64,000 bases of DNA from Candidatus Omnitrophota bacterium (GTDB lineage Bacteria; Omnitrophota; Gorgyraeia; 1-14-0-20-64-10), in the NCBI GenBank assembly GCA_023248155.1, contig JAHFFE010000001.1:212873-276872 (forward strand), given 5' to 3'. Shown here piece after piece: positions 1,542 through 55,864 of the stretch. Position numbers and translations under genes: made by a program. The notes below the pieces were generated by a model, which did not search any database, was not told where the DNA came from, and worked only from the letters and a program-made list of their open reading frames with translations. Every line of letters starts with the position of its first letter. The stretch's first letter is position 1.

Positions 1542-4500
1542 ATGAAACACCAATCCCCCCAACCTATAACGGGTCGTCTTTGGGCGCTTATTTTGGTCAT
1601 TGCGCTTGCTTTGCCAAATCCTGCCCTCGCTCTGCGCCCTACAGGCCTTGAAGAAAGCTCCTCTAAAAACAAAAGTAATTTTCTTAGTCAATTAGCCGCT
1701 TCTTCTGCCGGGCAGGAAGAAAGAACCCATCTCCTTGAGCTGGGGGATTCGCAATCTATTTACGATCGAATGGTCGACATCGCTCAAATAGTTGTCGGCT
1801 CAAGCATATTTGATCAAGATGCTGTGACAGAGTTTCTTCTAGGCGACGAGCCACCTGTTGTAATTCTTGCTTTAGATAAAGTAAAGGTTTTTTATGCTCC
1901 TGGAGATTCCCTCGACCAAAATCAAAGTGGTAACGATATTTTAATTGTATGGGAGCAGGGTTCATTTGACGAGAGAGAGATTGCACAATATTTCCGCACT
2001 ATTGGTGCAGATGATCCGTCGCTGCTTCCTTCAGTAGAAGGAGCTATAGATTTCAGTTTTAATTTTTCCAGCGGGATGCCAGCCGGGAGCCTGACAGACA
2101 TTCGGGTTGCCGAAGTGATACATCATTTAGACACGGGCGGCGATATAACGCTTAGAATTAAGTATTCAAAAGTGGCTGAAATCGCCGAGCGTCTCCCAGT
2201 CGTTTTGGCATTGGCAGCGCGGTTTATCAAAAAAGGCTATAATCCTTTCTCCGCCGGGCAGGAGGAGAAAACACAGCTACCCTTTAATCGAAGAACGGCT
2301 CTTCGAACCTTTGGGGTATTGTTGGGATTGCCGTTCTTGTCGGAATTTACGATTGCACAAAACTCAGTTAGTCCGCCCAAAATATTAACAACGCTGCAAC
2401 TGCCGCCGGTGCCACTGCCCAATAGTTTGATGGCTCAAAAAGCCGTTCGTCTTGCCACGAAAACCGACAGTACCTTTAAGGATAATTCCGGCGCCAAACT
2501 CTGGGTTGCTGGTTGGCCGGGAGACTCTGTTCAACCGAAACCGGTCATCATTCCAAAGGGTGTCAATTTGGTGGGCGAGGGTGATGCCGCTCAGGTTCTT
2601 GAAGGGAACCTAACCATAGGATCCGGTTCCATTGTCGCCAATATGACGATTCGCGGCGATGTTACGCTTACCGGCGGCGCGCAATTACTAAACTCGGTTG
2701 TCCAGGGCCGCGTGATTCTGGCCGGCGATGCCAATCAGGTTCGGGGGAACCGTATTTTTGGAAATACACTCTACCGTGAAAATGGGAAATTGCAGTATTC
2801 GCTCGGTCCTGCCGGCCCGCTGGTTCGTATTGGCACAAAAGAAGTCGCGTCCAACGGCAATGTTTTGGAAGGTAACAGTATTATTGCCGGTGTCCCTCCC
2901 GCTGAAATCGGATACCACCCTACCGCTTATCTGAAGAAACAATTTCCCAACGATGAACAACCGCAAACAAGTATGGGCAGATCAAGAAAACTCGAATTGT
3001 CTGCGGTCCATGTCGTCCAGGGAGCTCAAAATAAACTTCGGTATAACACAATCGTTTCATTGGAGAGCGATGCTCCCGCTGTTTTGGTAGGCGCGTGGCG
3101 CGAATATGTTTTGCCGGATAGGGGTAAAGTTATTGGATCGGTGACGCTTGAAAACAATGTCGCCATCAATATCGGAAAACTTGATCCCGACAGAATAAGA
3201 CCTATTGTGGCGGATCGAGAGGTAGTTTCCGGCGGGAATAATCTAATGATCTCGGAGCAGTTCATTCACACTCAAGCTAAAGTAACTGATTCGGACCGCG
3301 CCTACGGCATCGCCGCGGGTCCGACGATAGAGTTCAGGCCGGAACGGGAGATGTTGTTTGAGCGCGCGAACGGAGCACCCAAGAAAAGCTCCTTCGACCT
3401 GATCGGTACGCAGCCAGGCACTTACCGATTAAGGAAAGAATTCTTTGATCAGAATACTCCATTCGGAAAATTTCCCGAGATAGGCGTATTCCGTCAATCG
3501 AGCGACCAGCAGGCCGGGCAGGAGGAGAAGACAACACCCAAACCCAACATGAATTTGGCAGGGCCGGCCGGTCTGCGCCCTCAGTTCGATAAAATCAGTG
3601 CGCTGCAAGGACTCTCACCAGCCAGAAAAGACCAATTGGCACAGGCAATCGCCAGCGAAAGACCTTTCTCCGGTTATAAAGATTCCGCCGATTTGGTTGC
3701 CCGCATGAGGGGGCAAGTTTCCGGTGTCAACACCACCCAGTTGCAGGCGATAGGAAATCATTTCCAGCCGGGCATGTCCAGACGCGGCTTGCTTGCGATT
3801 GCTTTTGGAGTGACATTGCTGGCAGCAGTTCCTGTAGCCCTATGGCTTTTCCAGCCTGCGACGGCACCGGAGGGACATATTGTCTGGGTTTTCGAACCAC
3901 ATGGAGCAAATGATCTGGGAGTTGTTTTCGCCGAATTGCGCGCCGCCGCCAAAAGCGGACAGAAAACCATCTATATTCGGGAATCTGTCCCTTTCGCCAA
4001 CTTTTCACAACTCAACGCAGAGGCTCCAAAACTTGCCCAACAATTGAAGCCTGAGACCATCGACCCTCTGCTCGCGTTGTATGAACAAAATGGAGAAGAG
4101 GGGCTTCTAAAAGAATCGGCGCTTGCCCGGGAAATAAAAACTCTTTACGAAGAACGGCAAAAAGATGCAGACATAGAGATTCCGCAGCTTCGTTCCGATC
4201 CATCGGTTCTCAAGGATCCGCCGCCCGGCCTGGATCAGAATATTCTTTTAGAAGCACAGTTGCTGGTCGATTATCCCAACATTGAAGTCCGGAACGAAAA
4301 AGCTTCATTTATTGCTTATCTTTATCACATCCGATCAGAATGGACGAACGAACTGGCTGGCCGGGCTCTTTTTGGCGATAACGACCGCGATGCCTATTTC
4401 CGTTTCATGATGGATTCCTTCCGCTACGAGGCGCTTAATATTGAGCTGCGTGACCGGCCCTTTGCCTCTTTCGTTGAATCGATTCTTCGGGAAAACCCAG

Positions 4501-7091
4501 GTGCCACTGTTGTTGTACAGCGCGGTCTTTATCATGTTGTATCTGAATACGGTATCGATTACGATACGCTGAAATTCCGTTCCATAGAACGAAGGGTAGA
4601 AATAGATGACTCTATTACCAAGATAGCGTTTTTTTACCACGAACAGTTTCTAAGAGGAGAGTCGGTTCCTGTTTCGGATAAAATGCGCCGGAGTATGCTG
4701 GAAAATTTTATCGGTGATTCAGTGACGCGATTGTTGCAGGAAGAAACATCATCGGCCATTGCTTTTCGGGAAGCGGCTTCAATTACCGGAGCGTTGTCAG
4801 ATCAAGAGCTGGACGAACTCATCAAATTCCTTGGGGAAGATTTTGTAGCTTTTCGAGAAAACCAGAAGACGGCTTTCTTTGGAGCCTGGAATAGTCAAAG
4901 AGATTTAACGACACTGCAATGGCTGCAGACGCATCAAAAAATATCTGCCGCTAATTTCGAAATACTTCGTCCTGCAATCAATCGTCGAGTAAACGCCGGG
5001 CAGGAAGAATTGGGCACGGTGGTTATCGACCAGCACCAAAAACCTATTTCGGCGGTGGCGATCAGCTCGGACGGAAAAACAATTGCCTCTGGAGATAGTG
5101 CCGGCCGGTTGATCATCAAGCAGGTGGAAGGAGCACCGGAACCGATCATCGTTAATACGGGAAATGTAATTACCGACCTGGTTTTTGATACCAGCGGCGG
5201 AAAAATTGCCGTGGGATATGTCAACGGAGCCATTGCATTTTACGATCCGCAAACCGGAAAGACATTTCCAGAAGATGTCGCTCAACCGACTGAGCTGGGT
5301 TCTTTGATCTGGGATATGGCGTTCCACAGAGAAGGTCATCTTACCGCGATTTCTCATCCAGGACTTATTCATTCGATTGATCCTGAAACGGGTGATATCG
5401 ACCGTCTCTTTGAAGGACTTGTTAAATTCTCAACAACTCCCGGAATTGTTCGTATGGCCGTTGCTTTCCCGAACAACGAAAGCAGTCCCAAGTTCGCGAT
5501 TTCTGGTGATTCTGAAGTAAGGGTTATTGAAGAAGGTTTATCGCCCCGCGAGATCGACAGGTTTGAGGCGCCGGGTCATGTAATTCAGCAATTGGCGATT
5601 GATCCGACCGGGCAATATCTGGTGGCTTCCAATCTGGAAGACAACGACGACGAAAACTGGATTCAACTGAGAGACATTAACGCGCATGCTTCTATAACAT
5701 TGAACGGTGTTCATCGGCAGAGAGCGAATGCAATAGCCTTTTCTCCCGATGGAAAAATGCTGGTTTCTGCGGGTAAAGACGGCCAGTTGGTTTTTTGGGA
5801 AGTTCCTTCAGGCCGCGTGATCAAAATCGTTTCGCTCGACCCGATGGAGGGCAAAATTCAGCCTGTACCTAAAAGAGGAGATCCGTCGTATGTAAGCTCT
5901 GTTATTTTTCATAATGTAGTTTTTACGCCCAACGGCCACTCGGTGCTGGTTGCCGTTGAAGATCAGCGCAGTAAGCAGCAGACCGTCCGGCAATTTTCCG
6001 TTCCCGCCGCCGGGCAGGAAAAAGATTTGCCGCTGGATATCCGGCAATGGGATATTGATCAAGCAGATGTGAATGGCAAACCAATCGAAGAGTTAGCTCT
6101 TGTGAAATTACCGCCGGAGGGCCTTCGCTTGCCGCACGCGGCCATTCCAAACGAAGGGGTCCAAATTTATTTAGGGATTGCGGGGGTTCATCTTTCTCCG
6201 GAACCGGCTCCATGGTGGAGTGGTTTTCTTTTTTTGAAATCGGCCGCAAAGTCTCTGCGACTGACACAGACGGTGGCGCACAGCGACAAAGGCAAGATTC
6301 TCCGGCAGGGTGGAACGCCCATTCTGCTTGGCCTAGATCCGCAACAAGGAGCTTCATCACAATACGCGGCGGGGCCTTTTGACCCGTATCTTGTTTCGGT
6401 CGCTGGAGTTTCCAGGGCACACCTGCTTATTCGCTGGGATACGAATGGGGATATTGTTTTCAAGGACCTCAATTCCAGAAATGGCACCTGGATTGATCGA
6501 CAAGCCGCAGAACAGATCAAAGTGGGTTCACTGGCGATTCCATTTGTTAGCGCCGGGCAGGAGGAGGGAATCACGGTTGCTTTTCCGGAATCGGTATTGC
6601 AGGATGCGCAAAGACAGGGCGTTACTGTTTTTGATGCCGAGCAATTGGCAGGCTACGGTATTCCGGGCGCGCATGGAATATTAATTGCCGACTCAGCAAA
6701 CAGCAAGAGTTCTTCTGGGAAAATTTACGCGGACAATGAATTAGAAAACAGAGCCGCAGAAAGAGTATTCACTTGGGTGCTCGCCGGTGATAACGCAGTC
6801 GATATTATAGAGACTGCTGAAATTAATTCGGCAGCGGCCGGAGATTTAATTATTTTACGCCCGGAAACAGGTTTGGATAACGATCGAATTAAACAACTTT
6901 TGGAAGCGCAATGGATTAATCCTTCCGTTCGGGTCGTTGTTGGGGACGCTTCCGTTGTGAATGGGCTTTCCGTGAATGCGTTTCGTTTGCTGGCAGGGGG
7001 ACTTGATTTGCCGCCGGTGGTATTCCTCAACACAACGGTTCGCTTGAATGATGAAGCTGGCAATACTTACACGCTGATCCTGATGGCGTAA
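1542..7091 (+). CDS. Giant secreted/membrane multidomain protein (1849 aa): signal peptide, right-handed beta-helix, internal TM helix, WD40-like beta-propeller, FHA domain; six (A)GQEE(K/R) motifs between domains
   Basis: Single uninterrupted ORF. N-terminal signal peptide (LWALILVIALALPNPALA); parallel beta-helix repeats (NLTIGSGSIVANMTIRGDVTLTGGAQLLNSVVQGRVILAGDANQV); TM GLLAIAFGVTLLAAVPVALWLF; WD40-like blades (ISSDGKTIASGDSAGRLII, FSPDGKMLVSAGKDGQLVFWEV); FHA signature (VSRAHLLIRWDTNGDIVFKDLNSRNGTWIDRQ); AGQEE at aa ~56, 238, 658, 1152, 1490, 1671. Confidence 0.85.
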   Translation: MKHQSPQPITGRLWALILVIALALPNPALALRPTGLEESSSKNKSNFLSQLAASSAGQEERTHLLELGDSQSIYDRMVDIAQIVVGSSIFDQDAVTEFLLGDEPPVVILALDKVKVFYAPGDSLDQNQSGNDILIVWEQGSFDEREIAQYFRTIGADDPSLLPSVEGAIDFSFNFSSGMPAGSLTDIRVAEVIHHLDTGGDITLRIKYSKVAEIAERLPVVLALAARFIKKGYNPFSAGQEEKTQLPFNRRTALRTFGVLLGLPFLSEFTIAQNSVSPPKILTTLQLPPVPLPNSLMAQKAVRLATKTDSTFKDNSGAKLWVAGWPGDSVQPKPVIIPKGVNLVGEGDAAQVLEGNLTIGSGSIVANMTIRGDVTLTGGAQLLNSVVQGRVILAGDANQVRGNRIFGNTLYRENGKLQYSLGPAGPLVRIGTKEVASNGNVLEGNSIIAGVPPAEIGYHPTAYLKKQFPNDEQPQTSMGRSRKLELSAVHVVQGAQNKLRYNTIVSLESDAPAVLVGAWREYVLPDRGKVIGSVTLENNVAINIGKLDPDRIRPIVADREVVSGGNNLMISEQFIHTQAKVTDSDRAYGIAAGPTIEFRPEREMLFERANGAPKKSSFDLIGTQPGTYRLRKEFFDQNTPFGKFPEIGVFRQSSDQQAGQEEKTTPKPNMNLAGPAGLRPQFDKISALQGLSPARKDQLAQAIASERPFSGYKDSADLVARMRGQVSGVNTTQLQAIGNHFQPGMSRRGLLAIAFGVTLLAAVPVALWLFQPATAPEGHIVWVFEPHGANDLGVVFAELRAAAKSGQKTIYIRESVPFANFSQLNAEAPKLAQQLKPETIDPLLALYEQNGEEGLLKESALAREIKTLYEERQKDADIEIPQLRSDPSVLKDPPPGLDQNILLEAQLLVDYPNIEVRNEKASFIAYLYHIRSEWTNELAGRALFGDNDRDAYFRFMMDSFRYEALNIELRDRPFASFVESILRENPGATVVVQRGLYHVVSEYGIDYDTLKFRSIERRVEIDDSITKIAFFYHEQFLRGESVPVSDKMRRSMLENFIGDSVTRLLQEETSSAIAFREAASITGALSDQELDELIKFLGEDFVAFRENQKTAFFGAWNSQRDLTTLQWLQTHQKISAANFEILRPAINRRVNAGQEELGTVVIDQHQKPISAVAISSDGKTIASGDSAGRLIIKQVEGAPEPIIVNTGNVITDLVFDTSGGKIAVGYVNGAIAFYDPQTGKTFPEDVAQPTELGSLIWDMAFHREGHLTAISHPGLIHSIDPETGDIDRLFEGLVKFSTTPGIVRMAVAFPNNESSPKFAISGDSEVRVIEEGLSPREIDRFEAPGHVIQQLAIDPTGQYLVASNLEDNDDENWIQLRDINAHASITLNGVHRQRANAIAFSPDGKMLVSAGKDGQLVFWEVPSGRVIKIVSLDPMEGKIQPVPKRGDPSYVSSVIFHNVVFTPNGHSVLVAVEDQRSKQQTVRQFSVPAAGQEKDLPLDIRQWDIDQADVNGKPIEELALVKLPPEGLRLPHAAIPNEGVQIYLGIAGVHLSPEPAPWWSGFLFLKSAAKSLRLTQTVAHSDKGKILRQGGTPILLGLDPQQGASSQYAAGPFDPYLVSVAGVSRAHLLIRWDTNGDIVFKDLNSRNGTWIDRQAAEQIKVGSLAIPFVSAGQEEGITVAFPESVLQDAQRQGVTVFDAEQLAGYGIPGAHGILIADSANSKSSSGKIYADNELENRAAERVFTWVLAGDNAVDIIETAEINSAAAGDLIILRPETGLDNDRIKQLLEAQWINPSVRVVVGDASVVNGLSVNAFRLLAGGLDLPPVVFLNTTVRLNDEAGNTYTLILMA

Positions 7092-7913: not shown

Positions 7914-7987
7914 GCGCCCGTAGCTCAACTGGATAGAGTGACAGGCTTCGAACCTGGAGGTTGGGGGTTCAAATCCCTCCGGGCGCG
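7914..7987 (+). tRNA. tRNA-Arg (anticodon TCG)
   Basis: GCGCCCGTAGCTCAACTGGATAGAGTG...; anticodon loop CTTCGAA; T-arm GGTTCAAATCC; acceptor closes CGGGCGC. Confidence 0.8.
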
Positions 7988-7996
7988 GGCTTTATC

Positions 7997-8072
7997 GGGC
8001 CGTTAGCTCAGCTGGTAGAGCAGGGGACTCTTAATCCCAAGGTCATAGGTTCGATCCCTATACGGCCCACCA
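7997..8072 (+). tRNA. tRNA-Lys (anticodon CTT), CCA encoded
   Basis: GGGCCGTTAGCTCAGCTGGTAGAGCAG...; anticodon loop CTCTTAA; T-arm GGTTCGATCC; ends ACGGCCCACCA. Confidence 0.82.
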
Positions 8073-8100
8073 TTATTATCAATGTTCTTTGTTAAACAGC

Positions 8101-8185
8101 TGGGCATGTGGCGGAATTGGCAGACGCGCAGGATTTAGGATCCTGTCCCGTAAGGGGTGGGGGTTCAACTCCCTCCTTGCCCACG
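8101..8185 (+). tRNA. tRNA-Leu (anticodon TAG), class II with long variable arm
   Basis: D-arm TGGCGGAATTGGCAGACGCGC typical of tRNA-Leu; anticodon loop TTTAGGA; variable arm; T-arm GGTTCAACTCC. Exact ends uncertain (one apparent acceptor-stem mismatch). Confidence 0.65.
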
Positions 8186-8215
8186 GGCAGTCTTAAAAAT
8201 TTAAAGTAGTTTATC

Positions 8216-8290
8216 GCGGGAGTAACTCAGCGGTAGAGTGCAACCTTGCCAAGGTTGAGGTCGAGGGTTCGAATCCCTTCTCCCGCTCCA
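8216..8290 (+). tRNA. tRNA-Gly (anticodon GCC), CCA encoded
   Basis: GCGGGAGTAACTCAGCGGTAGAGTG; anticodon stem-loop CAACC-TTGCCAA-GGTTG; T-arm GGTTCGAATCC; ends CTCCCGCTCCA. Confidence 0.85.
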
Positions 8291-20695: not shown

Positions 20696-21175
20696 ATGCG
20701 TCGTATGATGGTTTTACTTGGAATCTTTGTTTGGATGTTGAATGGAGTTTCGGTTGCGATGGCCGAAGAAACTGGTTCTTCTGCGACATCGGATATGGCT
20801 GCCATGACCACCGCCGATATGGCTAATCCTCCGGCGGAAGAAGCCGCTCCCGTTGAGTCTGCCCCCGCCGAGTCGGCTCCAGTCGCTCCGGCGCCTGTCG
20901 CGATTACGCCGCCGGCTCTCAAGCCGATTACCATCACCTTCAGCGGTGAGGTAGTTTCCACAGATGTGGCTGCAAGCCAAATCACAATTCAGGACCGTTA
21001 TGGCGTTAAGAAAGAAATTGCCGTACCGGCCGAGGCCAGAATCAGCCAGGGCGCCAATTCCAAGACCTTGGGTGATTTAAAAGCCGCCGACAAAGTGACC
21101 GTGGAGTATACCTACGATGTTGCTTCGAACAAGCGGACGGCCCAGACGATTTCTCTAGGCGAAGCGGCTTCGTAA
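20696..21175 (+). CDS. Secreted hypothetical protein with Ala/Pro-rich linker
   Basis: Signal peptide MRRMMVLLGIFVWMLNGVSVAMA, low-complexity PAEEAAPVESAPAESAPVAPAPVAITPP linker, ~80-aa C-terminal domain; own promoter, SD and terminator. Confidence 0.6.
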   Translation: MRRMMVLLGIFVWMLNGVSVAMAEETGSSATSDMAAMTTADMANPPAEEAAPVESAPAESAPVAPAPVAITPPALKPITITFSGEVVSTDVAASQITIQDRYGVKKEIAVPAEARISQGANSKTLGDLKAADKVTVEYTYDVASNKRTAQTISLGEAAS

Positions 21176-21202
21176 GCTTTTTCGGAAATTGGTTTTACAA
21201 AA

Positions 21203-21236
21203 AGCCGGACAGGAAAAATCCTGTTCGGCTTTTTAT
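21203..21236 (+). terminator. Rho-independent terminator
   Basis: GCCGGACAGG-aaaaat-CCTGTTCGGC hairpin followed by TTTTTATTT. Confidence 0.65.
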
Positions 21237-21254
21237 TTGGATAGGACGGCTTGA

Positions 21255-22619
21255 ATGACGCCAAATCCGATCATTTTGGAAATAAAAACGCTTTCTCCCG
21301 ACGGGCTGGGTGTTGCCCAATGGGAAGGGAAAACCGTTTTGGTGCGCGATGCGCTGGCCGGCGAACAAGTCGAGGCGGAAATTATTCGCCGCCGGCGCGG
21401 CCAAACGGAAGCAAAAACCCTGCGCGTGATCGTTCCGGCCCAAGACCGCGTTTCTCCGCGCTGCGCCCATTTCGGCATTTGCGGCGGATGCAAACTTCAG
21501 CACCTTAGCTACGATTCACAAGTTGAGTGGAAAGGCCGCTGGCTCGGAAATTTATTCCGCGCCGAACTGCCGGGCCAAATCGATGTTCCGCTTGAACGCG
21601 TCGCGATGGAAGACCCCTGGCAATACCGCGGCAAGATGGAATTTTCTTTTTCTCCGGAAGAGGGCCGACTGGGACTGGGACTTCACCGCAGCGGAAGTTT
21701 TCAGCGCGTTGTGAATCTGAAGGAATGCCCGATCGCGCCCGATGTGGTTTCGGCGCTGTTGCCGGTGATTCGCGCGGCGGCCGAGGCGTCGGGGCAGCCG
21801 GCCTACGACACCCGCCGCTGCGAGGGGTTCTGGCGCCACGCGGTGGTGCGCGTTTCGCGCAGCGCGCAGACGGCGATGGTGACCATCGTTACGCGCGAAG
21901 GTCCTGCCGAATGGATGGAACCGATGGTTCGCATGATTCGCGAACAGGTCCCGCAGGTCAAAGCGTTATTTTGGGGAATTTCCAACCGCATTTCCGATGT
22001 CGCCTACGCCGAAAAAATGACCCAATTATTCGGCGATGATCATTTGGAAGATCAGATCGGCGCGGTCCGGTTTCATTTCGGCCCGACGCAGTTTGTTCAG
22101 CCAAATCGTCTTCTCGCCGAGGCGGCCTATCAGGCAATCCGCGAAAATTGCCGGCTGACCGGAAATGAAACGGTCTATGATCTTTATTGCGGCATGGGGT
22201 TGATCAGTCTGGCGCTGGCGCCGTTTGCGCGCGCCGTTTATGGAGTCGAATCGGAGAGTGACAATGTGGCGCTGGCCGAGCAGAACGCCGCGCTCAACGG
22301 CATTACCAACGCGTCGTTTATCTGCGGGAAAACCGAAGATCTTTTACGCGGCGGCGCCATTTTTAAGTTGGGCGGGAAGCCGGATCGGATTGTGCTGGAC
22401 CCGCCGCGCGCCGGACTGCATGGCGACAGCATCGCGCCGGTGTTGCAGGCGCGCGCGCCGCGGATCGTTTATCTTTCGTGCAATCCGAAAACGCTGGTCA
22501 ACGATTTAAAAGCGATGCTCAAGCGCGATCCAGCCTACCGCGTCGAGCGCGTGCAGTGGTTTGATTTTTTTCCGCATACCATCCATATGGAAACGCTCGT
22601 CACGCTCGTCCGCCGCTAA
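21255..22619 (+). CDS. rlmD: 23S rRNA (uracil-5-)-methyltransferase RlmD/RumA (TRAM + SAM-MTase)
   Basis: N-terminal TRAM domain, 4Fe-4S cysteines (CAHFGICGGCKLQHL), C-terminal SAM methyltransferase with DPPRAGL motif. Confidence 0.88.
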   Translation: MTPNPIILEIKTLSPDGLGVAQWEGKTVLVRDALAGEQVEAEIIRRRRGQTEAKTLRVIVPAQDRVSPRCAHFGICGGCKLQHLSYDSQVEWKGRWLGNLFRAELPGQIDVPLERVAMEDPWQYRGKMEFSFSPEEGRLGLGLHRSGSFQRVVNLKECPIAPDVVSALLPVIRAAAEASGQPAYDTRRCEGFWRHAVVRVSRSAQTAMVTIVTREGPAEWMEPMVRMIREQVPQVKALFWGISNRISDVAYAEKMTQLFGDDHLEDQIGAVRFHFGPTQFVQPNRLLAEAAYQAIRENCRLTGNETVYDLYCGMGLISLALAPFARAVYGVESESDNVALAEQNAALNGITNASFICGKTEDLLRGGAIFKLGGKPDRIVLDPPRAGLHGDSIAPVLQARAPRIVYLSCNPKTLVNDLKAMLKRDPAYRVERVQWFDFFPHTIHMETLVTLVRR

Positions 22620-22620
22620 G

Positions 22621-23048
22621 CCACTCGCTTCTTCACGCTTCCGTCAGGCAACCTGTGTTTCGAGTCGGCTCGGGCATGGGAGCCGTGGACACGCTCGGAA
22701 TCGACTACCGATTCCGTCGCTCTGTCTCCGGCCTTGCCGAAGAACAATTCGTTTCGGCCTCCGCCAAGGTCCACTTGCCCCATATCCCGATCCGCCTCTT
22801 ACCACGCATGAGTTAGAGTGAGAGCCACGAAGGGGTCCCGGAGCTTCGAGCGATTCCGTGCAGGATAAGGCTGAGCAGGCACTGGAAACCCTGAGCGGGC
22901 ATGGTTCTCCGTCGAAGACGGAGAGAGCGAAGGGTTGACCGTAGTGCAGCGAGACTCGCAGGGGCGAGCAAGCGGCCTGCGAACGCCTTGCCTGACGGAA
23001 GCGCGAAGAAGCGTACCGTGTCCACGGTCCCCATGCCCGGGCCGACTC
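22621..23048. repeat. ORF-less intergenic block with two long crossing complementary segment pairs (possible structured RNA or rearrangement scar)
   Basis: A: 22626-22651 pairs with 22988-23013 (26 nt, 1 mismatch). B: 22662-22693 pairs with 23017-23048 (32 nt, 1 mismatch + 2 GU). The order is A,B...A',B' (crossing), plus internal hairpins at 22696-22716 and ~22910-22922. Confidence 0.5.
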
Positions 23049-26170: not shown

Positions 26171-26193
26171 TTTCAAAATCAGATAGGTATACT
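26165..26193 (+). promoter_or_regulatory. Putative promoter (TTGTAA-N17-TATACT) giving a leaderless transcript for the pseudopilin gene
   Basis: TATACT 26188-26193, only 6 nt before ATG 26200; -35-like TTGTAA overlaps the upstream stop codon. Confidence 0.4.
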
Positions 26194-26199
26194 TAAATT

Positions 26200-26736
26200 A
26201 TGAGGCAGACTTCTTCATTCAAGCGGCGCGGGCAGTCCGGTGTTTCGCTGCTGGAGTTGATTGTCGCCACGGCGATCGTCGGCATTGTCAGTTTAGCTGT
26301 CGCTACGATCTACACCACTGCCAACCGCTACATGCTTCAGGATTTCAATTCCTCTAATGCGCAGAGCGAAGCTTCGTTCGCGCTGGAGCATATCAAGAAA
26401 TTTGTGCAGTTGGCCACCGCGATTGACAATGCGACTCTGCCGGTTGGCGGAAATTCAAACGCGCTGCAGTTTACCTGGACGAATCGAGAACCTCCCAGCA
26501 CCGGCGCATTGGTTACGCGCACTTCCCGCTATGAAATCCAGGCCGGGAATTTGGTTTTTATACAAGATACTACGGTGGGTGCCGCGGAACAATTGGCGAG
26601 GGGAGTCTCGGCCATTGAGTTTACGCGTCCGTTGGCCGGAAGCATCGCGGTTGATTTGACCGTTAATGTCAACGCGGTTACCGGCACCCGGCAGCAGCGG
26701 CTTCAAACCACGGTGAATCCTCGAGGCGTGGCATAA
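26200..26736 (+). CDS. Prepilin-type N-terminal cleavage/methylation domain protein (type IV pilin / pseudopilin)
   Basis: Class III signal: KRRGQSG|VSLLELIVATAIVGIVSLAV with Glu at +5. Confidence 0.8.
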   Translation: MRQTSSFKRRGQSGVSLLELIVATAIVGIVSLAVATIYTTANRYMLQDFNSSNAQSEASFALEHIKKFVQLATAIDNATLPVGGNSNALQFTWTNREPPSTGALVTRTSRYEIQAGNLVFIQDTTVGAAEQLARGVSAIEFTRPLAGSIAVDLTVNVNAVTGTRQQRLQTTVNPRGVA

Positions 26737-26750
26737 AAGGAGAAAATAAT

Positions 26751-27281
26751 ATGCTTTCTACGCGCACATCGGAGCGCGGATCAGCGCTGGTGATTGCGAT
26801 GGCGGCCGCGGTGATTGTCTCGATCATCGTGGCGGTGGTGATGAATCTTTCCATCCGCCGGTTTGAACTGTCCGCGCAGCGCACCGACCACGAAGTGGCC
26901 AAGATGAGCAGTGAGGCGGGCTTGCAATATGTCTTCTCCCGGCTGGCCATCGATGACGCTGTTTTCGGAGCTGCGGTTCGGCTTAAAAGAACTTCGCTGG
27001 GGGCGGCAGCTGTTCCGTTGAATAACGCCGCCGCTGAATATGTGGTCACCTGTGACACGGCGCTGCCTGGGGGGTCCGATGAGGTGGATCAGCGCCTGCA
27101 TGTCGGCGCTAAGATCGATACGCAGGGCCCAGCCAGCCCGACGAACGGCCAATATGTCGGCGGCAAGCATGTGACGATTCGCGTACGGTTTTTGACGGCG
27201 AACGACTTTACGGCAAATCCGACTCTGGATGCGGCCCGGCCTTACCGGGTGAGGGTCGATACCAATTTCGCGGAGGGTTAA
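26751..27281 (+). CDS. PilX/GspK-like minor pseudopilin (N-terminal hydrophobic helix, no Glu+5)
   Basis: SERGSALVIAMAAAVIVSIIVAVVMNL N-terminal segment; position between two prepilin genes. Confidence 0.55.
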   Translation: MLSTRTSERGSALVIAMAAAVIVSIIVAVVMNLSIRRFELSAQRTDHEVAKMSSEAGLQYVFSRLAIDDAVFGAAVRLKRTSLGAAAVPLNNAAAEYVVTCDTALPGGSDEVDQRLHVGAKIDTQGPASPTNGQYVGGKHVTIRVRFLTANDFTANPTLDAARPYRVRVDTNFAEG

Positions 27282-27285
27282 ACCG

Positions 27286-27858
27286 ATGGGATCGCGCGAG
27301 AATCAAGAGGGCGTTTCGCTGCTGGAAGTGCTGATTTCCATGGTGATCATTACGATGGTGGCCGGCGGAATCATCACCGCGATGATCCAGAGCCGCCGCG
27401 TGACGATCCGTTCTTCGTCGGAACTCTCCACCGCGGGCCTGGTTTCGGAAGTTTCGGAAGCGCTGCGCTCGGCCGTCAACGGGCCGATTACCACCGGCCC
27501 ATTTACCGGATTTGATTTGACGAATCCTGGGATTTTTGCCGATGCCAATATGCAAAACCGTCCGGCCGGCGCTACCGCCGTTAACTCATTAATTCTGCCG
27601 GCTGATTTTAGAGATAAATTCCAAACCAGTGCCGGCACCGCTGCGACGATTGCCGGACATGGAGACGGGCGCTTGGTGGTGGTGGAGAACGCGCCAGTTG
27701 ACAACAACCCCGCCAACGGAACGATTGACGCGGCCGAGCTGGCTGCCGTCGATCTCGACGGAGACGGGCAGGCCGGCATCGATTTTGACAATGACGGCAT
27801 CACCGATTTGCGGCGCGTCCGCGTGAAAGTGAAATTTACCTCCCCGACATCCAGCTGA
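27286..27858 (+). CDS. Prepilin-type N-terminal cleavage/methylation domain protein (minor pilin)
   Basis: NQEG|VSLLEVLISMVIITMVAGGIITA with Glu at +5. Confidence 0.75.
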   Translation: MGSRENQEGVSLLEVLISMVIITMVAGGIITAMIQSRRVTIRSSSELSTAGLVSEVSEALRSAVNGPITTGPFTGFDLTNPGIFADANMQNRPAGATAVNSLILPADFRDKFQTSAGTAATIAGHGDGRLVVVENAPVDNNPANGTIDAAELAAVDLDGDGQAGIDFDNDGITDLRRVRVKVKFTSPTSS

Positions 27859-32374: not shown

Positions 32375-34069
32375 ATGAAGCACAGTGTCGTTATTCCTCT
32401 GCTTGTCCTTGGAATTTTCGCCAACTATGCCTGGGCGGAAACCATCGAACTGGTCACTTATTATCCGACATCATCGAATGCCGGCGATCAACATCTCACT
32501 AGTTTAACCGTCGGCAATGCTTATCTAAACACGACACTGGCCGCCGGGCAGGCCTTGATCCAGGCCAGTTTGGGGATTGGTCCCGGGTTTGCGAATAACG
32601 AGCCGGCGGCTCCGACGATGCTGCAAGTGCAGGGTGTCGATGCTCAGGATTCAACAGCTCTATTTTTACCCGGCGCTGGAGGAACGATGAGCGTGGGGAT
32701 TGGCACAACGCCGGTTCTTGGAAGCGCTCTGGATGTTACCGGCGGAGACTTGTTTGTCCGGCAGACGGCCGGATCTGGAAACCATGTTCGGATCCGGGCT
32801 CCCTCCGATGCGAATACGGCCATTGAACTGCGCTCGGAAACGGCCGGCGGAAATCCGTACATTGATTTTGCTAATGACGCGGCAACCGATTTTGATATGC
32901 GCATTCAGTTAACCGGCAACGATGAGTTGCGCATTGACGGCGGGGCTCTTCAGGTGCGTCGGGAAGGGGGAGTCGATCAAACCGGCCAGCTGGCCCGGTA
33001 CACAAATGACGCGCAGCCGACCTCGCTATCTCTGCTGAAGGGCAGGAACACAGCAGCGGTCCCTTTCCGTCCTTCCCTTAATGATGGGTTGGGAATGATT
33101 CGTTTTCAGGGGGTTAATGTGGTTGGGCAGAATTATGACGGGGCCACGATTCAGGCTATTGCGTCGGCGAACTGGACCAATGCATCCGCGCCGGCCGATA
33201 TGGTTTTTTCCACCACGCCGTCTGGCGCCAACGGATCCGCGGAACGGATGCGGATTACGGATGACGGCCGAGTTTTGATTGGAACAACGGTTGTTCCCCC
33301 GACCGCGCCGACTACGCTGCTTGTGGCCCGGCGCGATGCCGATGAAATGGTGATGATGCGTGTCGAAAATCAGAATAATTCCGCGAACGCCGCCGCCCGC
33401 GTGTTTGCGGTTTCCCAGCAGGCCGCCACGCCAATCTCAATTGGAATGGATGCCTTCTCCCAGAATTTTAACACGACCACTTCATTAGGTGCTGCTGTTC
33501 CTGGGAATACGCTAATTGCTACCTTTGCCACTTTTGGGGCGATGGCTGCCAACCTGGGCAACCTGTTTATCGCGTCACGCGGACCCAACCAACGGATTGC
33601 ATTCCATACAGGAAATCTTGCTGTTGATGCGACCACCGAACGAATGCGGATTACCAACACCGGTCTTGTCGGGATTAATATCACAAATCCTACCTTCCGT
33701 TTACAATTACCCAACCTCGCTGTTGATTCAACGGGGCGCGGGCGCGCGAACGCATGGACAACCTACTCCTCCATTCGATGGAAAGAAAACATTACCTCAA
33801 TTGACCACCCCCTGGATAAGATTCAGGAACTTCGCGGTGTTTATTTTAATTGGAAAAAAGAACAAGGAGGCGTCCGGGATATTGGATTAATTGCCGAAGA
33901 AGTTGGCAAAATAATTCCGGAGGTTGTTTCTTATGAAGAGAACGGTAAAGATGCCAGTGGTATTACCTATGACCGATTGGTGGCTCTTTTAGTAGAGGGA
34001 ATCAAAGAGCTCAAGGTTGAGAATGATGCACTGAAGAAAAGAATTGATGATTTGGAGAAAAAATCATGA
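32375..34069 (+). CDS. Secreted fibre-like protein, paralog family (type-A N-term) with C-terminal intramolecular-chaperone (peptidase S74, endosialidase-chaperone-like) domain
   Basis: Signal peptide + AETIELVTYYPTS; C-terminus SSIRWKENITSIDHPLDKIQELRGVYFNWKKEQ...IGLIAEEV...YDRLVALLVEGIKELK...coiled coil matches the IMC/S74 domain of phage tail spikes. Confidence 0.85.
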   Translation: MKHSVVIPLLVLGIFANYAWAETIELVTYYPTSSNAGDQHLTSLTVGNAYLNTTLAAGQALIQASLGIGPGFANNEPAAPTMLQVQGVDAQDSTALFLPGAGGTMSVGIGTTPVLGSALDVTGGDLFVRQTAGSGNHVRIRAPSDANTAIELRSETAGGNPYIDFANDAATDFDMRIQLTGNDELRIDGGALQVRREGGVDQTGQLARYTNDAQPTSLSLLKGRNTAAVPFRPSLNDGLGMIRFQGVNVVGQNYDGATIQAIASANWTNASAPADMVFSTTPSGANGSAERMRITDDGRVLIGTTVVPPTAPTTLLVARRDADEMVMMRVENQNNSANAAARVFAVSQQAATPISIGMDAFSQNFNTTTSLGAAVPGNTLIATFATFGAMAANLGNLFIASRGPNQRIAFHTGNLAVDATTERMRITNTGLVGINITNPTFRLQLPNLAVDSTGRGRANAWTTYSSIRWKENITSIDHPLDKIQELRGVYFNWKKEQGGVRDIGLIAEEVGKIIPEVVSYEENGKDASGITYDRLVALLVEGIKELKVENDALKKRIDDLEKKS

Positions 34070-39722: not shown

Positions 39723-39780
39723 GGGAATTCATCTACCCTACGGGTTTTTAAGTCGGCTGTCAATGAGTGCCGGTATCATG

Positions 39781-39786
39781 TATACT
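39781..39786 (+). promoter_or_regulatory. GTATACT -10-like element upstream of fibre gene 39817
   Basis: GTATACT 39780-39786, then SD AGGAGG and ATG 39817. Confidence 0.35.
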
Positions 39787-39816
39787 TATTTTATAAATTC
39801 ACAGGAGGTGTTTTTT

Positions 39817-42773: not shown

Positions 42774-42779
42774 TATACT
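42774..42779 (+). promoter_or_regulatory. TATACT -10-like element 6 nt before ATG 42786 (leaderless-type)
   Basis: GATATACT-gctgtc-ATG. Confidence 0.35.
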
Positions 42780-42785
42780 GCTGTC

Positions 42786-50746: not shown

Positions 50747-50754
50747 TTTTCGAG

Positions 50755-50760
50755 TATACT
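50755..50760 (+). promoter_or_regulatory. GTATACT -10-like element upstream of fibre gene 50779
   Basis: GAGTATACT then 18 nt to ATG. Confidence 0.3.
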
Positions 50761-50778
50761 TTTGAATAGGCAAGAACG

Positions 50779-52383: not shown

Positions 52384-53085
52384 GTGAGTAAGGAAAAATT
52401 CGTCCACCGTTTGTTTGATACAATCACTCCGCGCTATGACCTATTCAACCGCGTCGGCAGTCTCGGCATGGATCACAGCTGGCGGAGAAAAACAATCCAG
52501 GCGCTTCAACTGAAACCGGAAATGCGCGTACTTGATTTAGCCAGCGGCACCGGTGATTTGGCGCGCGACTGCGCGGCTGAGTTAGCGCCGCTGGGGAAAG
52601 TAGTCGCTTGTGATCTTTCTCTGCAGATGCTTTCACGGGCCGTCAAGCGGCTGGCGGTTTTTCCGCCGGCGCGCTGGCACGTCAGCTACGCGCAGGGAAG
52701 GGCCGAAAACCTGCCGTTTAACCCAGCCACTTTTGACGCCGCCACTATGGCGTTTGCTCTGCGCAATGTTTCCGATTTGGATGCCACTTTTGGCGAATAC
52801 CATCGTACGATGCGTCCCGGCGCTCATTTGGCATTGCTGGAGTTCGGCCGGCCAACCAATTTTTTCGTGCGCGCGGGCCACTGGCTCTGGCTCTCAACCG
52901 CTATTCCTCTGTTTGGTTTTTTAACGACCGGCTTGTTCTGGCCGTTCCTTTATTTGCGCCGATCAATACTGCAATTTATGCCGCCGGAGCAGGTGGTTAA
53001 AAAACTGCAAAACGCCGGTTTTGGCGAAGTCTCCGCCACTCGCTTAAGCGGCGGGATTGTGGTTCTCTACCAGGCTATTCGTTAA
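52384..53085 (+). CDS. menG: Demethylmenaquinone / ubiquinone-menaquinone C-methyltransferase (UbiE/MenG family)
   Basis: FDTITPRYDLFNRVGSLGMDHSWRRK and VLDLASGTGDLA SAM-binding motif. Confidence 0.85.
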   Translation: MSKEKFVHRLFDTITPRYDLFNRVGSLGMDHSWRRKTIQALQLKPEMRVLDLASGTGDLARDCAAELAPLGKVVACDLSLQMLSRAVKRLAVFPPARWHVSYAQGRAENLPFNPATFDAATMAFALRNVSDLDATFGEYHRTMRPGAHLALLEFGRPTNFFVRAGHWLWLSTAIPLFGFLTTGLFWPFLYLRRSILQFMPPEQVVKKLQNAGFGEVSATRLSGGIVVLYQAIR

Positions 53086-53119: not shown

Positions 53120-55864
53120 ATGAGATCCAATAACCGCCTAACAGGGCGATTTTTATTTGCCCGAATTTTAAGCGCTTTGTTGATCGTTAGCATTGCGCTG
53201 CCGCCTTCGTCTGTCTACGCCTTGCGTCCGCTCGCGGGCCGCGAATCCGGGATGGAAGAAAACCTTACGAACAAATTGCGTCCTGTCACTGGGCAGGAGG
53301 AACGGATCGTGGTACGCATCAATCCGGTGACGGAAGCTCCGGAGTGGCGCCTGGAAACGGAGTTCCGCGTTTCTCCTGAATCACAAAGCATCCGTGATTT
53401 GTTAAGCCAGCCGAATCCATCTTCTGCCGATTGGTATCGTCATGATCCGAAGGAGAAGCTGGATCGTTTGGCGGAGCTGTTTCAGGCCGGATTTGATTAC
53501 TATGCTCGCTGGATTCCTTTGTCCGGAGGAGCCCTCGTTTATTATGATGCAAGCCCACTGCTGGCTTATCTGAAGCAAGAATTCCAATGGGCCGCTTCGA
53601 CGGAAACAACCCAGCTCAATCGCATGCAATATACGCACCTGGTGAACACAATAGTCACTCAGCTGTTTCATCCGAACCGGCGTTCGCTGCTCTCTTTCCC
53701 GGATGCAAACGACCACTCGCGCGTCATTGAAAAAGATTTGACGGAAGATTGGCGGGCAATCCCTTACCTGGATGGACGAATCCCTGTTTGGGAAGCGGCT
53801 TCCAAGCCGGGTGAGCGCAATCCCGGATTTTTCACGGTGGAGGGGTGGCACCAAGGCCCGTTTGCGGTGCACGGGTCTCATTCGGATCCGTATTGGATGC
53901 AGGTTCCGTTGGAGGAATATCCGAAGCGGTTAGTTCAACCCATTGCAGCATTGTTTACTCGGCTGAGGAATTCTCCGGCAGATTTCAGGCGCTATTTTGG
54001 AACATTGACCACTCAGTTAGAAGAAAGAGCTCACGCGGAGGACGAGGTGTGGGCGTATCGGTTTCACGGAAGCGTTTTTCCATCCACCCAGTATACAGAC
54101 CATCTTATTGCAGATGCGATTCTCCGCCCGAATTCTAGGGCTGATCGGTTATGGACGAGTCAAAAACAAGCCCACTTAAGAAACGGAGAATTCTTTGATT
54201 CGGCCGGCAATTTTATAGAATTTTCCGGACAATTGAAACGGCTGATCCGGGTGATCGAAGCGGTCTACGCTGAAAAACCGGAACCAGAGGCTGATCCCTG
54301 GGCGTTGGCACTCTTTTTGGAATACGCAATCGACCAGTATGAGAATGGCGTCAAAGCGGCGAAAGGAACATGGACGCCCTATCCGCGTGAGATTTCTCAG
54401 TGGTTTATAAGCCTTTTGGTTGAGCAAGGTCTTCCAAGGGAAGTTCTGGGAACTGGCAGAAAATTTCAAGACGGGTTATGGAACGAACTCAATACGCATC
54501 AATCGGGCGAAGCAGCGATTTCCGGCCGCAAGGCGCTGGCTTGGGCGAAGAATATGCAGCGGTCTTTCTATATAACGGAGGAAGAGCGAATAGATCTTTT
54601 AAATCAGGGGCCCCCCGTTGCGGCCGGACAGGAGGAGAAGCCGGAGGAATTCCCAACGGAGCACGACTCGAAATTCTTTGAAAAGCTGGGGGAACCGCAG
54701 TGGGGTTTCGAACCCAAAGAATGGGCGGGGCTCTGGTATCTGCTTGACGGAAAAGTGCCGCAAAGTCTGGACGGTACGCTGGATGAATTGAATCATGGAA
54801 TCAGACTCCACGCGGATTCAAAGAATTTCTGGGGATCTAAAGACGCGGAGTTCGCACAGAAATTGATACACAAACTATACGACCGGATTCGGAACCAATA
54901 TGGACTTGAATGGAATGATTGGCGTTTATTCTTTGATCTGACGAATGGAAATATTCTGGCCGATTCACAGAGGTTAAGCGTTGTCCTTGACGTGATGATC
55001 TCAAGAAAAACACGGTTTGTTTCTGAGACCCCGCTTACCCCAATTGAATTAACCATGGTCCATTCGTTGCGCGATAGGCTTCAGCAGTCTGAACCGCTGC
55101 CGATAGATCCGAGAATGCGGGATTTCCCGGCTGTTTCTACGGAAAAACAGGTCGCGATGGGGAATTTTGCCAATTTTATTATAGCCGTTACGCTTTTAGG
55201 CGCGGGGTGGTTTTACGCGCGTCAGGCCCAGAATGGAGGTGGAGTCGTCCAGCCGGATAACGCGCCGGCGCCGGCTGTTATAAAACCGCGACAACGACAG
55301 TCGGTTCCAGCCGAATATTTTCGTTTTAAGTGGGAAGGCGAGGGGCCGATTGCCGAGGTGGATGGAGAACGGGTTGATTTCAACGACTGGGATAAATTGG
55401 GCGAGGCGCTTTCTCAGGAACAGGTAGATCTCTTTTTGCGGGAGCAGGAAGGGGCCGAGAGCTGGCTGGTGCCCGTAGACGCGGCGCTGCCGATTAATCG
55501 GGCGATCCATGTTTTTGACCAGGTGGGGATTCCTTCTCAACAGCTGCCGCAGAATCTGAACTATTTTAATTTAAGCCAGGATGCGGCCGCGGAAGTGACG
55601 CCCGATTTGCTGGCGCAGGGCATTAAAGACGGCGATGTTGTGATTCTTCGCGCCGATCAGGTAACGCCGGAAGGGGCCAAGAACCTGATTCCGGAAGGGA
55701 TTAAAGCGCGCGTGGTTTTGTTAACGCCGCTCATGCTTAAGCAACTATCGGCCCGGCAGTTGCTGTTCGTGGCGACTCAGCTTGATCCGGGTGAAACGCT
55801 GTATATCCAGCACCTCTCTTCCGTCACTCTTGAAAGCCAGCGCTACCTGCTGATTGCCGCCTAG
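53120..55864 (+). CDS. Giant secreted/membrane protein 2 (915 aa), paralogous N-terminus to the 1542 protein, with two (A/T)GQEE(R/K) motifs and an internal TM helix
   Basis: MRSNNRLTGRFLFARILSALLIVSIALPPSSVYALRPLAGRES...TGQEER aligns with ITGRLWALILVIALALPNPALALRPTGLEES...AGQEER of the first protein; second motif AAGQEEKPEEF; TM FANFIIAVTLLGAGWFYA. Confidence 0.8.
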   Translation: MRSNNRLTGRFLFARILSALLIVSIALPPSSVYALRPLAGRESGMEENLTNKLRPVTGQEERIVVRINPVTEAPEWRLETEFRVSPESQSIRDLLSQPNPSSADWYRHDPKEKLDRLAELFQAGFDYYARWIPLSGGALVYYDASPLLAYLKQEFQWAASTETTQLNRMQYTHLVNTIVTQLFHPNRRSLLSFPDANDHSRVIEKDLTEDWRAIPYLDGRIPVWEAASKPGERNPGFFTVEGWHQGPFAVHGSHSDPYWMQVPLEEYPKRLVQPIAALFTRLRNSPADFRRYFGTLTTQLEERAHAEDEVWAYRFHGSVFPSTQYTDHLIADAILRPNSRADRLWTSQKQAHLRNGEFFDSAGNFIEFSGQLKRLIRVIEAVYAEKPEPEADPWALALFLEYAIDQYENGVKAAKGTWTPYPREISQWFISLLVEQGLPREVLGTGRKFQDGLWNELNTHQSGEAAISGRKALAWAKNMQRSFYITEEERIDLLNQGPPVAAGQEEKPEEFPTEHDSKFFEKLGEPQWGFEPKEWAGLWYLLDGKVPQSLDGTLDELNHGIRLHADSKNFWGSKDAEFAQKLIHKLYDRIRNQYGLEWNDWRLFFDLTNGNILADSQRLSVVLDVMISRKTRFVSETPLTPIELTMVHSLRDRLQQSEPLPIDPRMRDFPAVSTEKQVAMGNFANFIIAVTLLGAGWFYARQAQNGGGVVQPDNAPAPAVIKPRQRQSVPAEYFRFKWEGEGPIAEVDGERVDFNDWDKLGEALSQEQVDLFLREQEGAESWLVPVDAALPINRAIHVFDQVGIPSQQLPQNLNYFNLSQDAAAEVTPDLLAQGIKDGDVVILRADQVTPEGAKNLIPEGIKARVVLLTPLMLKQLSARQLLFVATQLDPGETLYIQHLSSVTLESQRYLLIAA

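Follow-up and report, generated by a model that had tools for sequence, protein, structure and literature searches.

A recurrent [AST]-G-x-E-E peptide motif heads the modules of large Omnitrophota proteins and is a candidate recognition or cleavage site

Introduction

The PatE recognition sequence of the cyanobactins is AGLEAS. The subtilisin-like protease PatA cleaves after a five-residue signal, G(L/V)E(A/P)S or GLEAS, that is repeated in the cyanobactin precursors (PMC4282754). Here we analyzed a 64,000-nucleotide stretch of contig JAHFFE010000001.1 of a Candidatus Omnitrophota bacterium (the window), in which the five-residue peptide AGQEE and its near variants recur in two long open reading frames (ORFs), ORF1 and ORF2. 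The motif family to which AGQEE belongs also includes the form AGLEE, and the cyanobactin GLEAS/PatA system is its nearest analogue in both sequence and logic, as a resemblance only. As in the cyanobactins, the signal has five residues, can contain G-L-E, is repeated and stands directly upstream of each cassette; the cyanobactin signal is read by a dedicated protease, and for the motif we infer a corresponding reader. The differences are that positions 4 and 5 are EE rather than A/P-S, that the segments between motifs measure 8 to 59 or 103 to 869 amino acids (aa) rather than being cores of 6 to 8 residues in a precursor of about 70 aa, and that no S8 protease lies near the motif-bearing ORFs, whereas patA and patG are adjacent genes. 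A cyanobactin core peptide was defined as 6 to 11 aa with an AYD-type C-terminal signal, and no AYD-like second signal was seen in the motif logo.

Polyprotein maturation is known from viral 3C- and NS3-type sites and from Mycoplasma hyopneumoniae adhesins, which are cut at S/T-X-F|X-D/E in disordered regions. The motif-bearing proteins likewise place several units in one ORF, with short conserved sites in flexible linkers, but the proteases and products of those systems have been demonstrated, whereas the present proteins are putative precursors, a chromosomal bacterial family with internal signals of the general secretory (Sec) and twin-arginine translocation (Tat) types. In polymorphic toxins, a pre-toxin motif such as VENN in CdiA marks the protein's single junction, which lies ahead of a C-terminal toxin accompanied by an immunity gene; conservation of the coding DNA at this junction may favor module exchange. 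The present motif is also a short peptide at the border between constant and exchangeable parts, where homology breaks, but it marks multiple junctions per protein. No PT-VENN, pre-toxin or toxin domains were found by Pfam or NCBIfam in ORF1, ORF2 or the ORF2 relative P0031, and the downstream genes are rluB-like and ubiD.

Double-glycine leaders are N-terminal, 15 to 30 aa long, end in GG, GA or GS and are cut by C39 peptidases, with a C39-ABC transporter nearby. The [AST]-G of the motif similarly offers a small residue and a glycine as possible P2-P1 positions. It differs in being internal and repeated and in having no upstream amphipathic leader helix, and Pfam detected no C39 domain or ABC exporter in ORF1, ORF2 or the window. 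Dual Sec-Tat membrane proteins have a single Tat-dependent last helix after an even number of Sec helices. The actinobacterial Rieske protein is an integrated membrane protein of this dual type (PMC3471235, PMC5449189). The motif-bearing proteins resemble this class in having internal twin-arginine signals within a longer, putatively Sec-engaging polypeptide, but with up to three Tat-like signals per chain, each preceded by the motif and located after an odd number of hydrophobic segments.

Whether the huge multi-domain ORFs of Omnitrophota yield single chains or cut products is treated as an open question in papers on the phylum. In one giant-protein study, C39 and S8 domains are reported in such proteins, cleavage is suspected, and even in-silico dissection is described as blocked by the lack of "information about cleavage points" (10.1101/2023.11.21.568195). 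Neither a motif nor cleavage is mentioned in a survey of 916 long proteins from 2026 (10.64898/2026.06.07.730766), and a search of both papers for the terms motif, cleavage and linker gave no description of a junction motif.

A lineage-wide motif at module junctions

The peptide motif [AST]-G-[LAMQVI]-E-E is found throughout the lineage, and AGQEE is its local dialect. It stands at the head of every module in a lineage-specific protein family whose members combine a leader with unrelated, freely shuffled modules. A previous sequence-only reading of the window had described the motif in two proteins, but it is not peculiar to them. An exhaustive profile-free search with residues 1 to 1150 of ORF1 recovered 27 relatives, whereas the full-length query was swamped by WD40 matches and gave no family signal; no relative of ORF1 was found among the GTDB representative genomes, which indicates that the window genome is absent from that collection. 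Most of the 27 matched ORF1 residues ~657 to 1146, which coincide exactly with the interval from motif copy 3 to copy 4 (module 3). This interval occupies widely differing positions in the relatives (26 to 514 of 1222, 565 to 1050 of 2357 and 3921 to 4243 of 5133 residues). These relatives, from metagenome-assembled genomes (MAGs) labeled Omnitrophota or "Planctomycetia", carry 3 to 10 motif copies per protein in forms such as SGLEE, AGLEE, AGMEE, AGAEE and TGIEE.

A logo of 100 copies gave A60/S22/T14/G4, then G, then L45/A23/M12/Q10/V5, then E and E, with flanks below 0.5 bit at every position and an upstream side rich in P, R, A and S. An alignment of module 3 from 10 proteins with ~25% identity (A1) had only 17 invariant columns, and these included G and EE of the motif on either side. 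The third residue varies by genome, being Q in the window genome and its close relative L002, A in L062 and L063, and L or M elsewhere, and the first copy after the leader keeps L, M or V at this position. The three closest relatives with enough flanking sequence each encode one leader-bearing protein with 3 or 4 copies. At five further loci of 8 to 29 kb from relative-encoding genomes, the motif was found in large hypothetical proteins, with no more than one copy in any neighboring ORF. By comparison, 54 control loci of other phyla, fetched via UbiD, contained 10 copies in total, with only one ORF having two. The motif and the leader were not found in Pfam, NCBIfam or the searchable literature, where the query strings returned the Ras switch-II motif and noise; the motif is undescribed in the resources searched, an absence that is not proof of novelty.

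The sequence-only reading had also placed the motif at domain boundaries, and this was supported across the family. Module 3 homologues stand at differing positions in 25 or more proteins, with the motif on both sides in 10 of the 10 that were aligned. In ORF1, the WD40 domain (residues 1163 to 1456) falls between copies 4 and 5 and the FHA domain (1621 to 1658) between copies 5 and 6; the aldo-keto-reductase domain of P0040 (1064 to 1281) is bracketed by AGAEE at 1044 and 1327, and the HATPase_c domain of P0051 ends at 365 with a motif at 373. ORF2 (P0030) and P0031 are 55% identical up to a point precisely at AGQEEK/AGAEEK, after which unrelated segments, 255 aa long in one protein and 728 aa in the other, are followed by an 80%-identical C-terminal domain. 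The inter-motif distance is bimodal. Spacings of 8 to 59 aa occur where copies stand in tandem behind leaders or in certain C-terminal regions, whereas those of 103 to 869 aa are domain-sized. In an AlphaFold2 (AF2) model of module 3 with a predicted local distance difference test (pLDDT) score of 82, both flanking motif copies lie in segments with pLDDT below 50.

Targeting signals downstream of the motif

A basic pair with a hydrophobic 14-mer beginning no more than 14 aa past the motif was found at 8 of 103 copies, compared with 1.2% of other positions (p=5e-5). In the relatives, a twin-arginine signal often begins only a few residues past the motif. P0035 has three twin-arginine signals, namely TGVEE-NPVSRRQFLGVAAAG..AGA followed by QS, AGLEE-GLNRRQFLGAAAG and SGVEE-NPTRRGFLQAAAAG, and others follow the motif in P0047 (IGMEE-RPNRRRW) and L006 (SGLEE-WKGPRRNFLKK). 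In P0035, the Pfam TAT_signal model PF10518 matched residues 477 to 495, right past AGLEE, at 34.6 bits (gathering threshold 22.7), and the Rieske-type Tat model PF10399 matched residues 1251 to 1268, past SGVEE, at 28.4 bits (threshold 24). The Pfam-recognized internal Tat signals in the family start 2 to 3 residues past the motif. Among internal transmembrane-like segments, the N-terminal flank is the richer in Lys and Arg in 12 of 16. The segment after copy 2 in ORF1, NRRTALRTFGVLLGLPFL, fits the signal pattern by eye and by a hydropathy rule. Module 2, which follows it, has counterparts in P0035 and P0047 that come after a motif and a twin-arginine signal.

Proposed cleavage or recognition at the motif

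We tentatively favor the hypothesis, plausible though somewhat short of probable, that the motif is a recognition and cleavage site for the maturation of polyprotein-like precursors. A dedicated endopeptidase, probably acting in trans, would recognize and cut the motif in flexible linkers, and the released modules would then act as separate proteins, some exported via their own Tat or anchor signals and others, such as the WD40, FHA and aldo-keto reductase modules, staying in the cytoplasm. The near-identical 15-nucleotide sequence would be a secondary effect of junctions copied or exchanged by recombination rather than the primary function. This narrows the options offered by the sequence-only reading, which were a protease or autoprocessing site, a linker spread by recombination and a DNA-level recombination or regulatory site. 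Several observations were counted in favor of cleavage. Among them are the specificity of the motif for this family, its place at junctions, its sharp limitation to five residues and the targeting signals that follow it, with PatA as a precedent. The G and EE are as invariant as catalytic-type core residues, and the single-module protein P0033 has a motif at both ends. The uniform polarity of the internal segments, with the N-terminal flank positive, is easier to reconcile with independent signals than with a polytopic chain of alternating topology, and with an odd number of preceding hydrophobic segments, an intact chain would be topologically awkward. In an uncut ORF1 product, the WD40 and FHA modules would be expected on the outer side of the membrane. 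The genome-specific dialects suggest co-evolution with a reader protein.

A more far-reaching proposal, possible but rather doubtful, is that these are genuine bacterial polyproteins, with [AST]-G-x-E-E as their cleavage code. Every copy would be cut by a protease specific to the lineage, giving several independently localized proteins per ORF; the third residue would co-evolve with this protease, and the same or a related code would segment the very large multi-enzyme ORFs reported from Omnitrophota. The products of one ORF could then include Tat-exported enzymes, membrane-anchored hydrolases and cytoplasmic signaling modules.

Several points weigh against cleavage. No candidate protease emerged, as a Pfam scan of the long (at least 150 aa), non-overlapping window ORFs detected no S8 or C39 peptidase, no neighboring gene was conserved across the loci, and the gene tables of L062 to L066 listed no Peptidase_S8. 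If the protease acted in the cytoplasm, a cut at the first motif would separate the cargo from its Sec-like leader. The sequence-only reading had noted signal-like starts after the motif; this holds for the family through the Pfam Tat signals of P0035, but the example it gave, the segment after copy 2 of ORF1 (residues 243 to 269), had no PF10518 match at E<=1, and neither did the anchor of module 3 (residues 742 to 770), where the twin-arginine region gave only non-significant profile matches to Rieske and EfeB Tat signals (E about 1 to 2). Terminal segments of a model often have low pLDDT for trivial reasons, in part an end effect, so the AF2 result for the module 3 flanks is weak. Motifs in the C-terminal regions of P0032, P0037, P0038 and P0047 are 15 to 40 aa apart at apparent strand-to-helix transitions, where a cut would disrupt a small domain. 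For one multi-motif C-terminal region (A2), the AF2 model had a pLDDT of 51 and was too poor to judge these closely spaced copies. Internal Tat signals also work without cleavage in dual Sec-Tat membrane proteins (PMC5449189, PMC3471235).

Some of these points are shared by the main alternative, unlikely but deserving real weight, in which the motif is not cut and serves in recognition or structure. It could dock a partner that acts as a chaperone or in sorting or assembly, or it could be a conserved helix N-cap or linker at the start of each module, and the chains would stay intact and woven through the membrane. The dual Sec-Tat precedent and the failure to find a protease are both consistent with such an element, as are the short island of conservation in a disordered context, typical of linear motifs, and the closely spaced copies in small C-terminal regions, which are at helix starts in the low-confidence model. 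However, a passive linker would not hold G and EE invariant at 25% identity or give genome-specific dialects, no partner is known, and the N-flank-positive signals and the odd count of hydrophobic segments do not suit an intact chain of alternating topology. A phosphorylation site (S-x-x-E) was rejected, as position 1 is Ala in 60% of copies.

Peptide and nucleotide constraint

A 15-mer search and a six-frame peptide search recovered all eight copies described by the sequence-only reading (Table 1), every one of them in frame in ORF1 or ORF2, together with two leader-proximal copies of the family type that it had missed, TGLEE in ORF1 and SGMEE in ORF2. That reading had called the two proteins giant, which is an overstatement at 1849 and 914 aa. 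The 15-mer GCCGGGCAGGAGGAG is exact at 2253, 3513 and 6552 and has 1 or 2 mismatches at 1707, 4995 and 54623. With up to 2 mismatches, it gave 7 matches in the window compared with 0.17 expected, and 0 of 100 dinucleotide-preserving shuffles reached 7; the seventh match, at 1079, is outside any long ORF and was taken as chance. The copies at 6009 (GCCGGGCAGGAAAAA, AGQEK) and 53288 (ACTGGGCAGGAGGAA, TGQEE) have 3 mismatches each and were recovered by the peptide search. An AGQEK-coding 15-mer, GCCGGACAGGAAAAA, at 21204-21218 lies between two ORFs in a short frame that is soon stopped, and this too was taken as chance. The strict pattern [ASTG]G[LMAVIQT]EE occurred 9 times in the 2,763 aa of ORF1 and ORF2 and once, as SGLEE of PtsI, in the 17,472 codons of the other ~45 window ORFs (Fisher p=1.4e-7), so that within the window DNA the motif is not equally frequent in unrelated proteins.

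Sequence likeness around the copies is confined to 15 to 21 nucleotides, the flanking DNA is not conserved, and no longer DNA repeats or hairpins were found around the copies in the window. An Rfam scan of the window gave five tRNAs only, with no RNA element at the motif. In the window genome, Ala is encoded by GCC in 7 of 7 copies and Gly by GGG in 7 of 8, compared with background usages of about 0.3 to 0.5 and about 0.2, respectively (combined p about 1e-6 to 5e-8), and L002 has GCCGGG(GCG/CAG)GAGGAG three times. Across nine genomes, by contrast, the peptide is fixed while its coding varies over all four Gly codons, the two Glu codons and several of the Ser, Ala and Leu codons. This indicates that, family-wide, the peptide rather than a DNA site is constrained. 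Conservation of the DNA beyond what the peptide requires, as proposed from the window sequence, is thus real locally and secondary family-wide, and a DNA-level site as the primary constraint was not upheld. A residual family-wide bias was nevertheless observed. For Ala, GCC is used in 34 of 38 copies but in 51% of the Ala-Gly pairs outside the motif (p=1e-6). For Glu, GAG makes up 74% of the motif codons and 53% of the remaining Glu codons of these genes (p=1e-5), and EE is GAGGAG in 60 to 64% of motifs compared with 29 to 36% elsewhere. This bias fits either the copying of junctions by recombination or mild selection for a Shine-Dalgarno (SD)-like element, which are inseparable here.

The first of these has a stronger form, in which the 15 nucleotides function primarily as an in-frame recombination joint (microhomology) for module swaps and the peptide is a by-product. 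We consider this improbable. It would account for the near-identical codons in the window genome and L002, for the GCC and GAGGAG bias, for the motif being the top-ranked direct-repeat family (D1 to D4) of ORF1, for the P0030/P0031 breakpoint at a motif and for the shuffled module order among relatives. Against it count the codons that vary across genomes under a fixed peptide and the third residue that changes by amino-acid class; moreover, 15 nucleotides is short for homologous recombination, and P0030 and P0031 have a 3' breakpoint away from any motif. Such a joint could coexist with a peptide function.

The second has its counterpart in the proposal, very improbable in our judgment, that an SD-like GGAGG within ..NNG GAG GAG pauses ribosomes between modules and so aids co-translational folding or targeting. 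The causal role of SD-like sequences in ribosome pausing is contested. The SD-like CAGGAGGAG is present in four of the motif copies, in line with the sequence-only reading. GGAGG is depleted in the other window ORFs (50 observed compared with 69.6+-5.7 in synonymous shuffles) and not in ORF1 and ORF2, where one third of the GGAGG sites lie in motifs; this and the GAG enrichment would suit a pausing signal. On the other hand, GAA accounts for 26% of motif Glu codons, the copies at 1707, 4995 and 6009 lack GGAGG, an SD-like pause would need no invariant G-x-E-E in one frame, and few window genes use a clear SD, with an SD-like tetramer upstream of only 11 of 46 mechanically called starts.

Internal initiation, at which the sequence-only reading had hinted, with the motif serving as the SD for a downstream start and the modules translated separately, is scarcely credible. 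The four copies of CAGGAGGAG and the signal-like segments after some motifs could be seen in this light, but ATG, GTG and TTG were not enriched at any offset past 60 motif copies, in or out of frame. In-frame starts at codon offsets 5 to 13 numbered 2 to 6 per 60 copies per position, equal to the background of 6.3% per codon, no spacing was preferred in any frame, and there is no start codon near copy 2. Chance or composition has a negligible claim despite single copies in unrelated genes (SGLEE of PtsI and metagenome matches, of which the exact 15-mer gave at least 120 single ones, mostly in high-GC DNA, with no multi-motif proteins among the matches listed), given the counts within the window, the near absence of the motif from the control loci and its conserved position in alignment A1.

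Architecture of ORF1 and ORF2

The features of the two ORFs are listed in Table 1. Module 3 comprises a ComEA-like helix-hairpin-helix region, a conserved G-M-(S/T)-R-R with a transmembrane helix, and an alpha/beta domain with invariant His, Glu, Arg-Asp and Gly-x-x-His whose best fold matches are EreA/ChaN-type proteins, which makes an EreA/ChaN/TIKI-like fold a candidate. A search of the Protein Data Bank sequences with alignment A1 gave nothing significant. Module 3 may be a membrane-anchored hydrolase or protease. The C-terminal 360 aa of ORF1 as query found one relative only, the 202-aa fragment P0060. For ORF2, the real start is most likely the ATG at 53120, which gives the publicly held 914-aa protein P0030.

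ORF1 and ORF2 are alike only in the motif and in their first ~55 residues, which contain the hydrophobic leader, ALRP, xG[LM]EE and ..GQEER. A putative Sec-type leader (..LPxPAxA then LRP) was seen by eye in both and in ~25 relatives, in agreement with hydropathy. Pfam detected domains (WD40 and FHA) only in ORF1 and none in ORF2, and in NCBIfam no family matched ORF1, ORF2 or P0031 at E<=1. At the other end, ~19 of 27 family proteins finish with a terminal hydrophobic strand and a C-terminal Ala (..TYTLILMA, ..RYLLIAA, ..ALVVFA, ..TLLRAA), as at 7062-7088 in ORF1 and 55835-55861 in ORF2, and this terminus may be a recognition feature, e.g., for a tail-specific protease or a PDZ reader.

Table 1. 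Positions of the leaders, motif copies and modules of ORF1 and ORF2 in the window
Feature	Position	Strand	Details
ORF1 (P0001)	1542..7091	+	1849 aa; leader, six junction motifs and one leader-proximal variant, WD40, FHA
ORF1 leader	1542..1640	+	MKHQSPQPITGRLWALILVIALALPNPALA then LRP; Sec-type by eye; family consensus ..LPxPAxA-LRP
Leader-proximal motif TGLEE	1641..1655	+	ACAGGCCTTGAAGAA
Motif copy 1, AGQEE	1707..1721	+	GCCGGGCAGGAAGAA; precedes module 1 (aa 61-237)
Motif copy 2, AGQEE	2253..2267	+	Exact 15-mer
Peptide spanning motif copy 2			GYNPFSAGQEEK
Arg-Arg and hydrophobic stretch	2286..2348	+	NRRTALRTFGVLLGLPFLSEF; 7 residues past copy 2; signal- or anchor-like
Module 2, repeat-rich	2439..3512	+	Homologous to P0035 aa 150-508, P0047, P0056
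Motif copy 3, AGQEE	3513..3527	+	Exact 15-mer
Module 3 (aa 663-1151)	3528..4994	+	Between copies 3 and 4
Motif copy 4, AGQEE	4995..5009	+	GCCGGGCAGGAAGAA
WD40 beta-propeller module	5010..6008	+	Pfam, aa 1163-1456
Motif copy 5, degenerate AGQEK	6009..6023	+	GCCGGGCAGGAAAAA
FHA-containing module	6024..6551	+	Pfam FHA, aa 1621-1658
Motif copy 6, AGQEE	6552..6566	+	Exact 15-mer
ORF1 C-terminal domain	6567..7088	+	End ..AGNTYTLILMA; homologue P0060
ORF2 (P0030)	53120..55864	+	914 aa; leader and motifs; between ubiE and ubiD
ORF2 leader	53120..53230	+	..IALPPSSVYALRP
Leader-proximal motif SGMEE	53246..53260	+	
Motif copy 7, TGQEE	53288..53302	+	ACTGGGCAGGAGGAA
Motif copy 8, AGQEE	54623..54637	+	GCCGGACAGGAGGAG; P0031 homology ends exactly here

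Genomic context

The window is ordinary chromosome, with enolase, phosphotransferase system, S-adenosylmethionine cycle, LptF/G, tricarboxylic acid cycle, biotin and quinone genes and tRNAs. Its UbiD (55880-57325) is 78 to 82% identical to proteins of MAGs labeled "Candidatus Omnitrophota bacterium (NC_groundwater)" or "uncultured Planctomycetia" and only 55% identical to that of Omnitrophus fodinae, which tentatively puts the window in an Omnitrophota-like clade of the PVC group. A tRNA gene (1340-1413) lies directly 5' of ORF1, and a four-tRNA cluster (7914-8287) lies ~0.8 kb 3' of it. The slot between ubiE and ubiD (window 52384-57325), filled by ORF2 in the window genome, is variable in the clade. 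It holds a non-homologous 1152-aa motif-bearing protein in L006 and a helix-turn-helix/nucleotidyltransferase-like pair in L004, and ubiE adjoins ubiD in L007 and L050; in L005, another motif-bearing protein is directly upstream of ubiD. The slot looks like a hot spot of accessory-gene turnover. Elsewhere, P0040 (3009 aa, 7 motifs; L062 9045-19030) is inside a his/trp biosynthesis run, directly after a Peptidase_M48 gene, and L063 has two separate motif-bearing genes within 23 kb (coordinates including 21135-22978). Each genome thus seems to encode many proteins of the family, dispersed between operons with housekeeping functions.

A -10-like box, GGTATACTT or GGCATACTT, is present 7 to 15 nucleotides 5' of the starts of ORF1, ORF2 and three other genes (within 1517-1541, 53095-53119, 26175-26199, 50754-50778 and 42761-42785). 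None of the five genes has a Shine-Dalgarno sequence, which suggests very short-leader or leaderless mRNAs. Among other proteins of the window, the intervals 36919-39722 (minus strand), 32375-34069, 58866-60773, 39703-41364 and 26200-27858 hold a TldD/PmbA metallopeptidase pair, two proteins with a C-terminal Peptidase_S74 (self-cleaving chaperone) domain, one Gly_rich_2 protein and pilin-like proteins. Small pilin-like proteins with an N-methylation motif number two in the window, possibly three, the third ORF being without a Pfam match. In a related MAG, GCA_964373805.1, GyrA (L065 3685-7716) carries an intein (PF14890).

Significance

A short, invariant, lineage-restricted motif that brackets modules and precedes export signals is a concrete candidate for a cut or recognition site. 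If the motif is cleaved, the family would represent bacterial polyproteins that are encoded on the chromosome and cut by a defined code. An uncleaved motif would still be a new signal for sorting or assembly, one that goes together with a distinct N-terminal leader.

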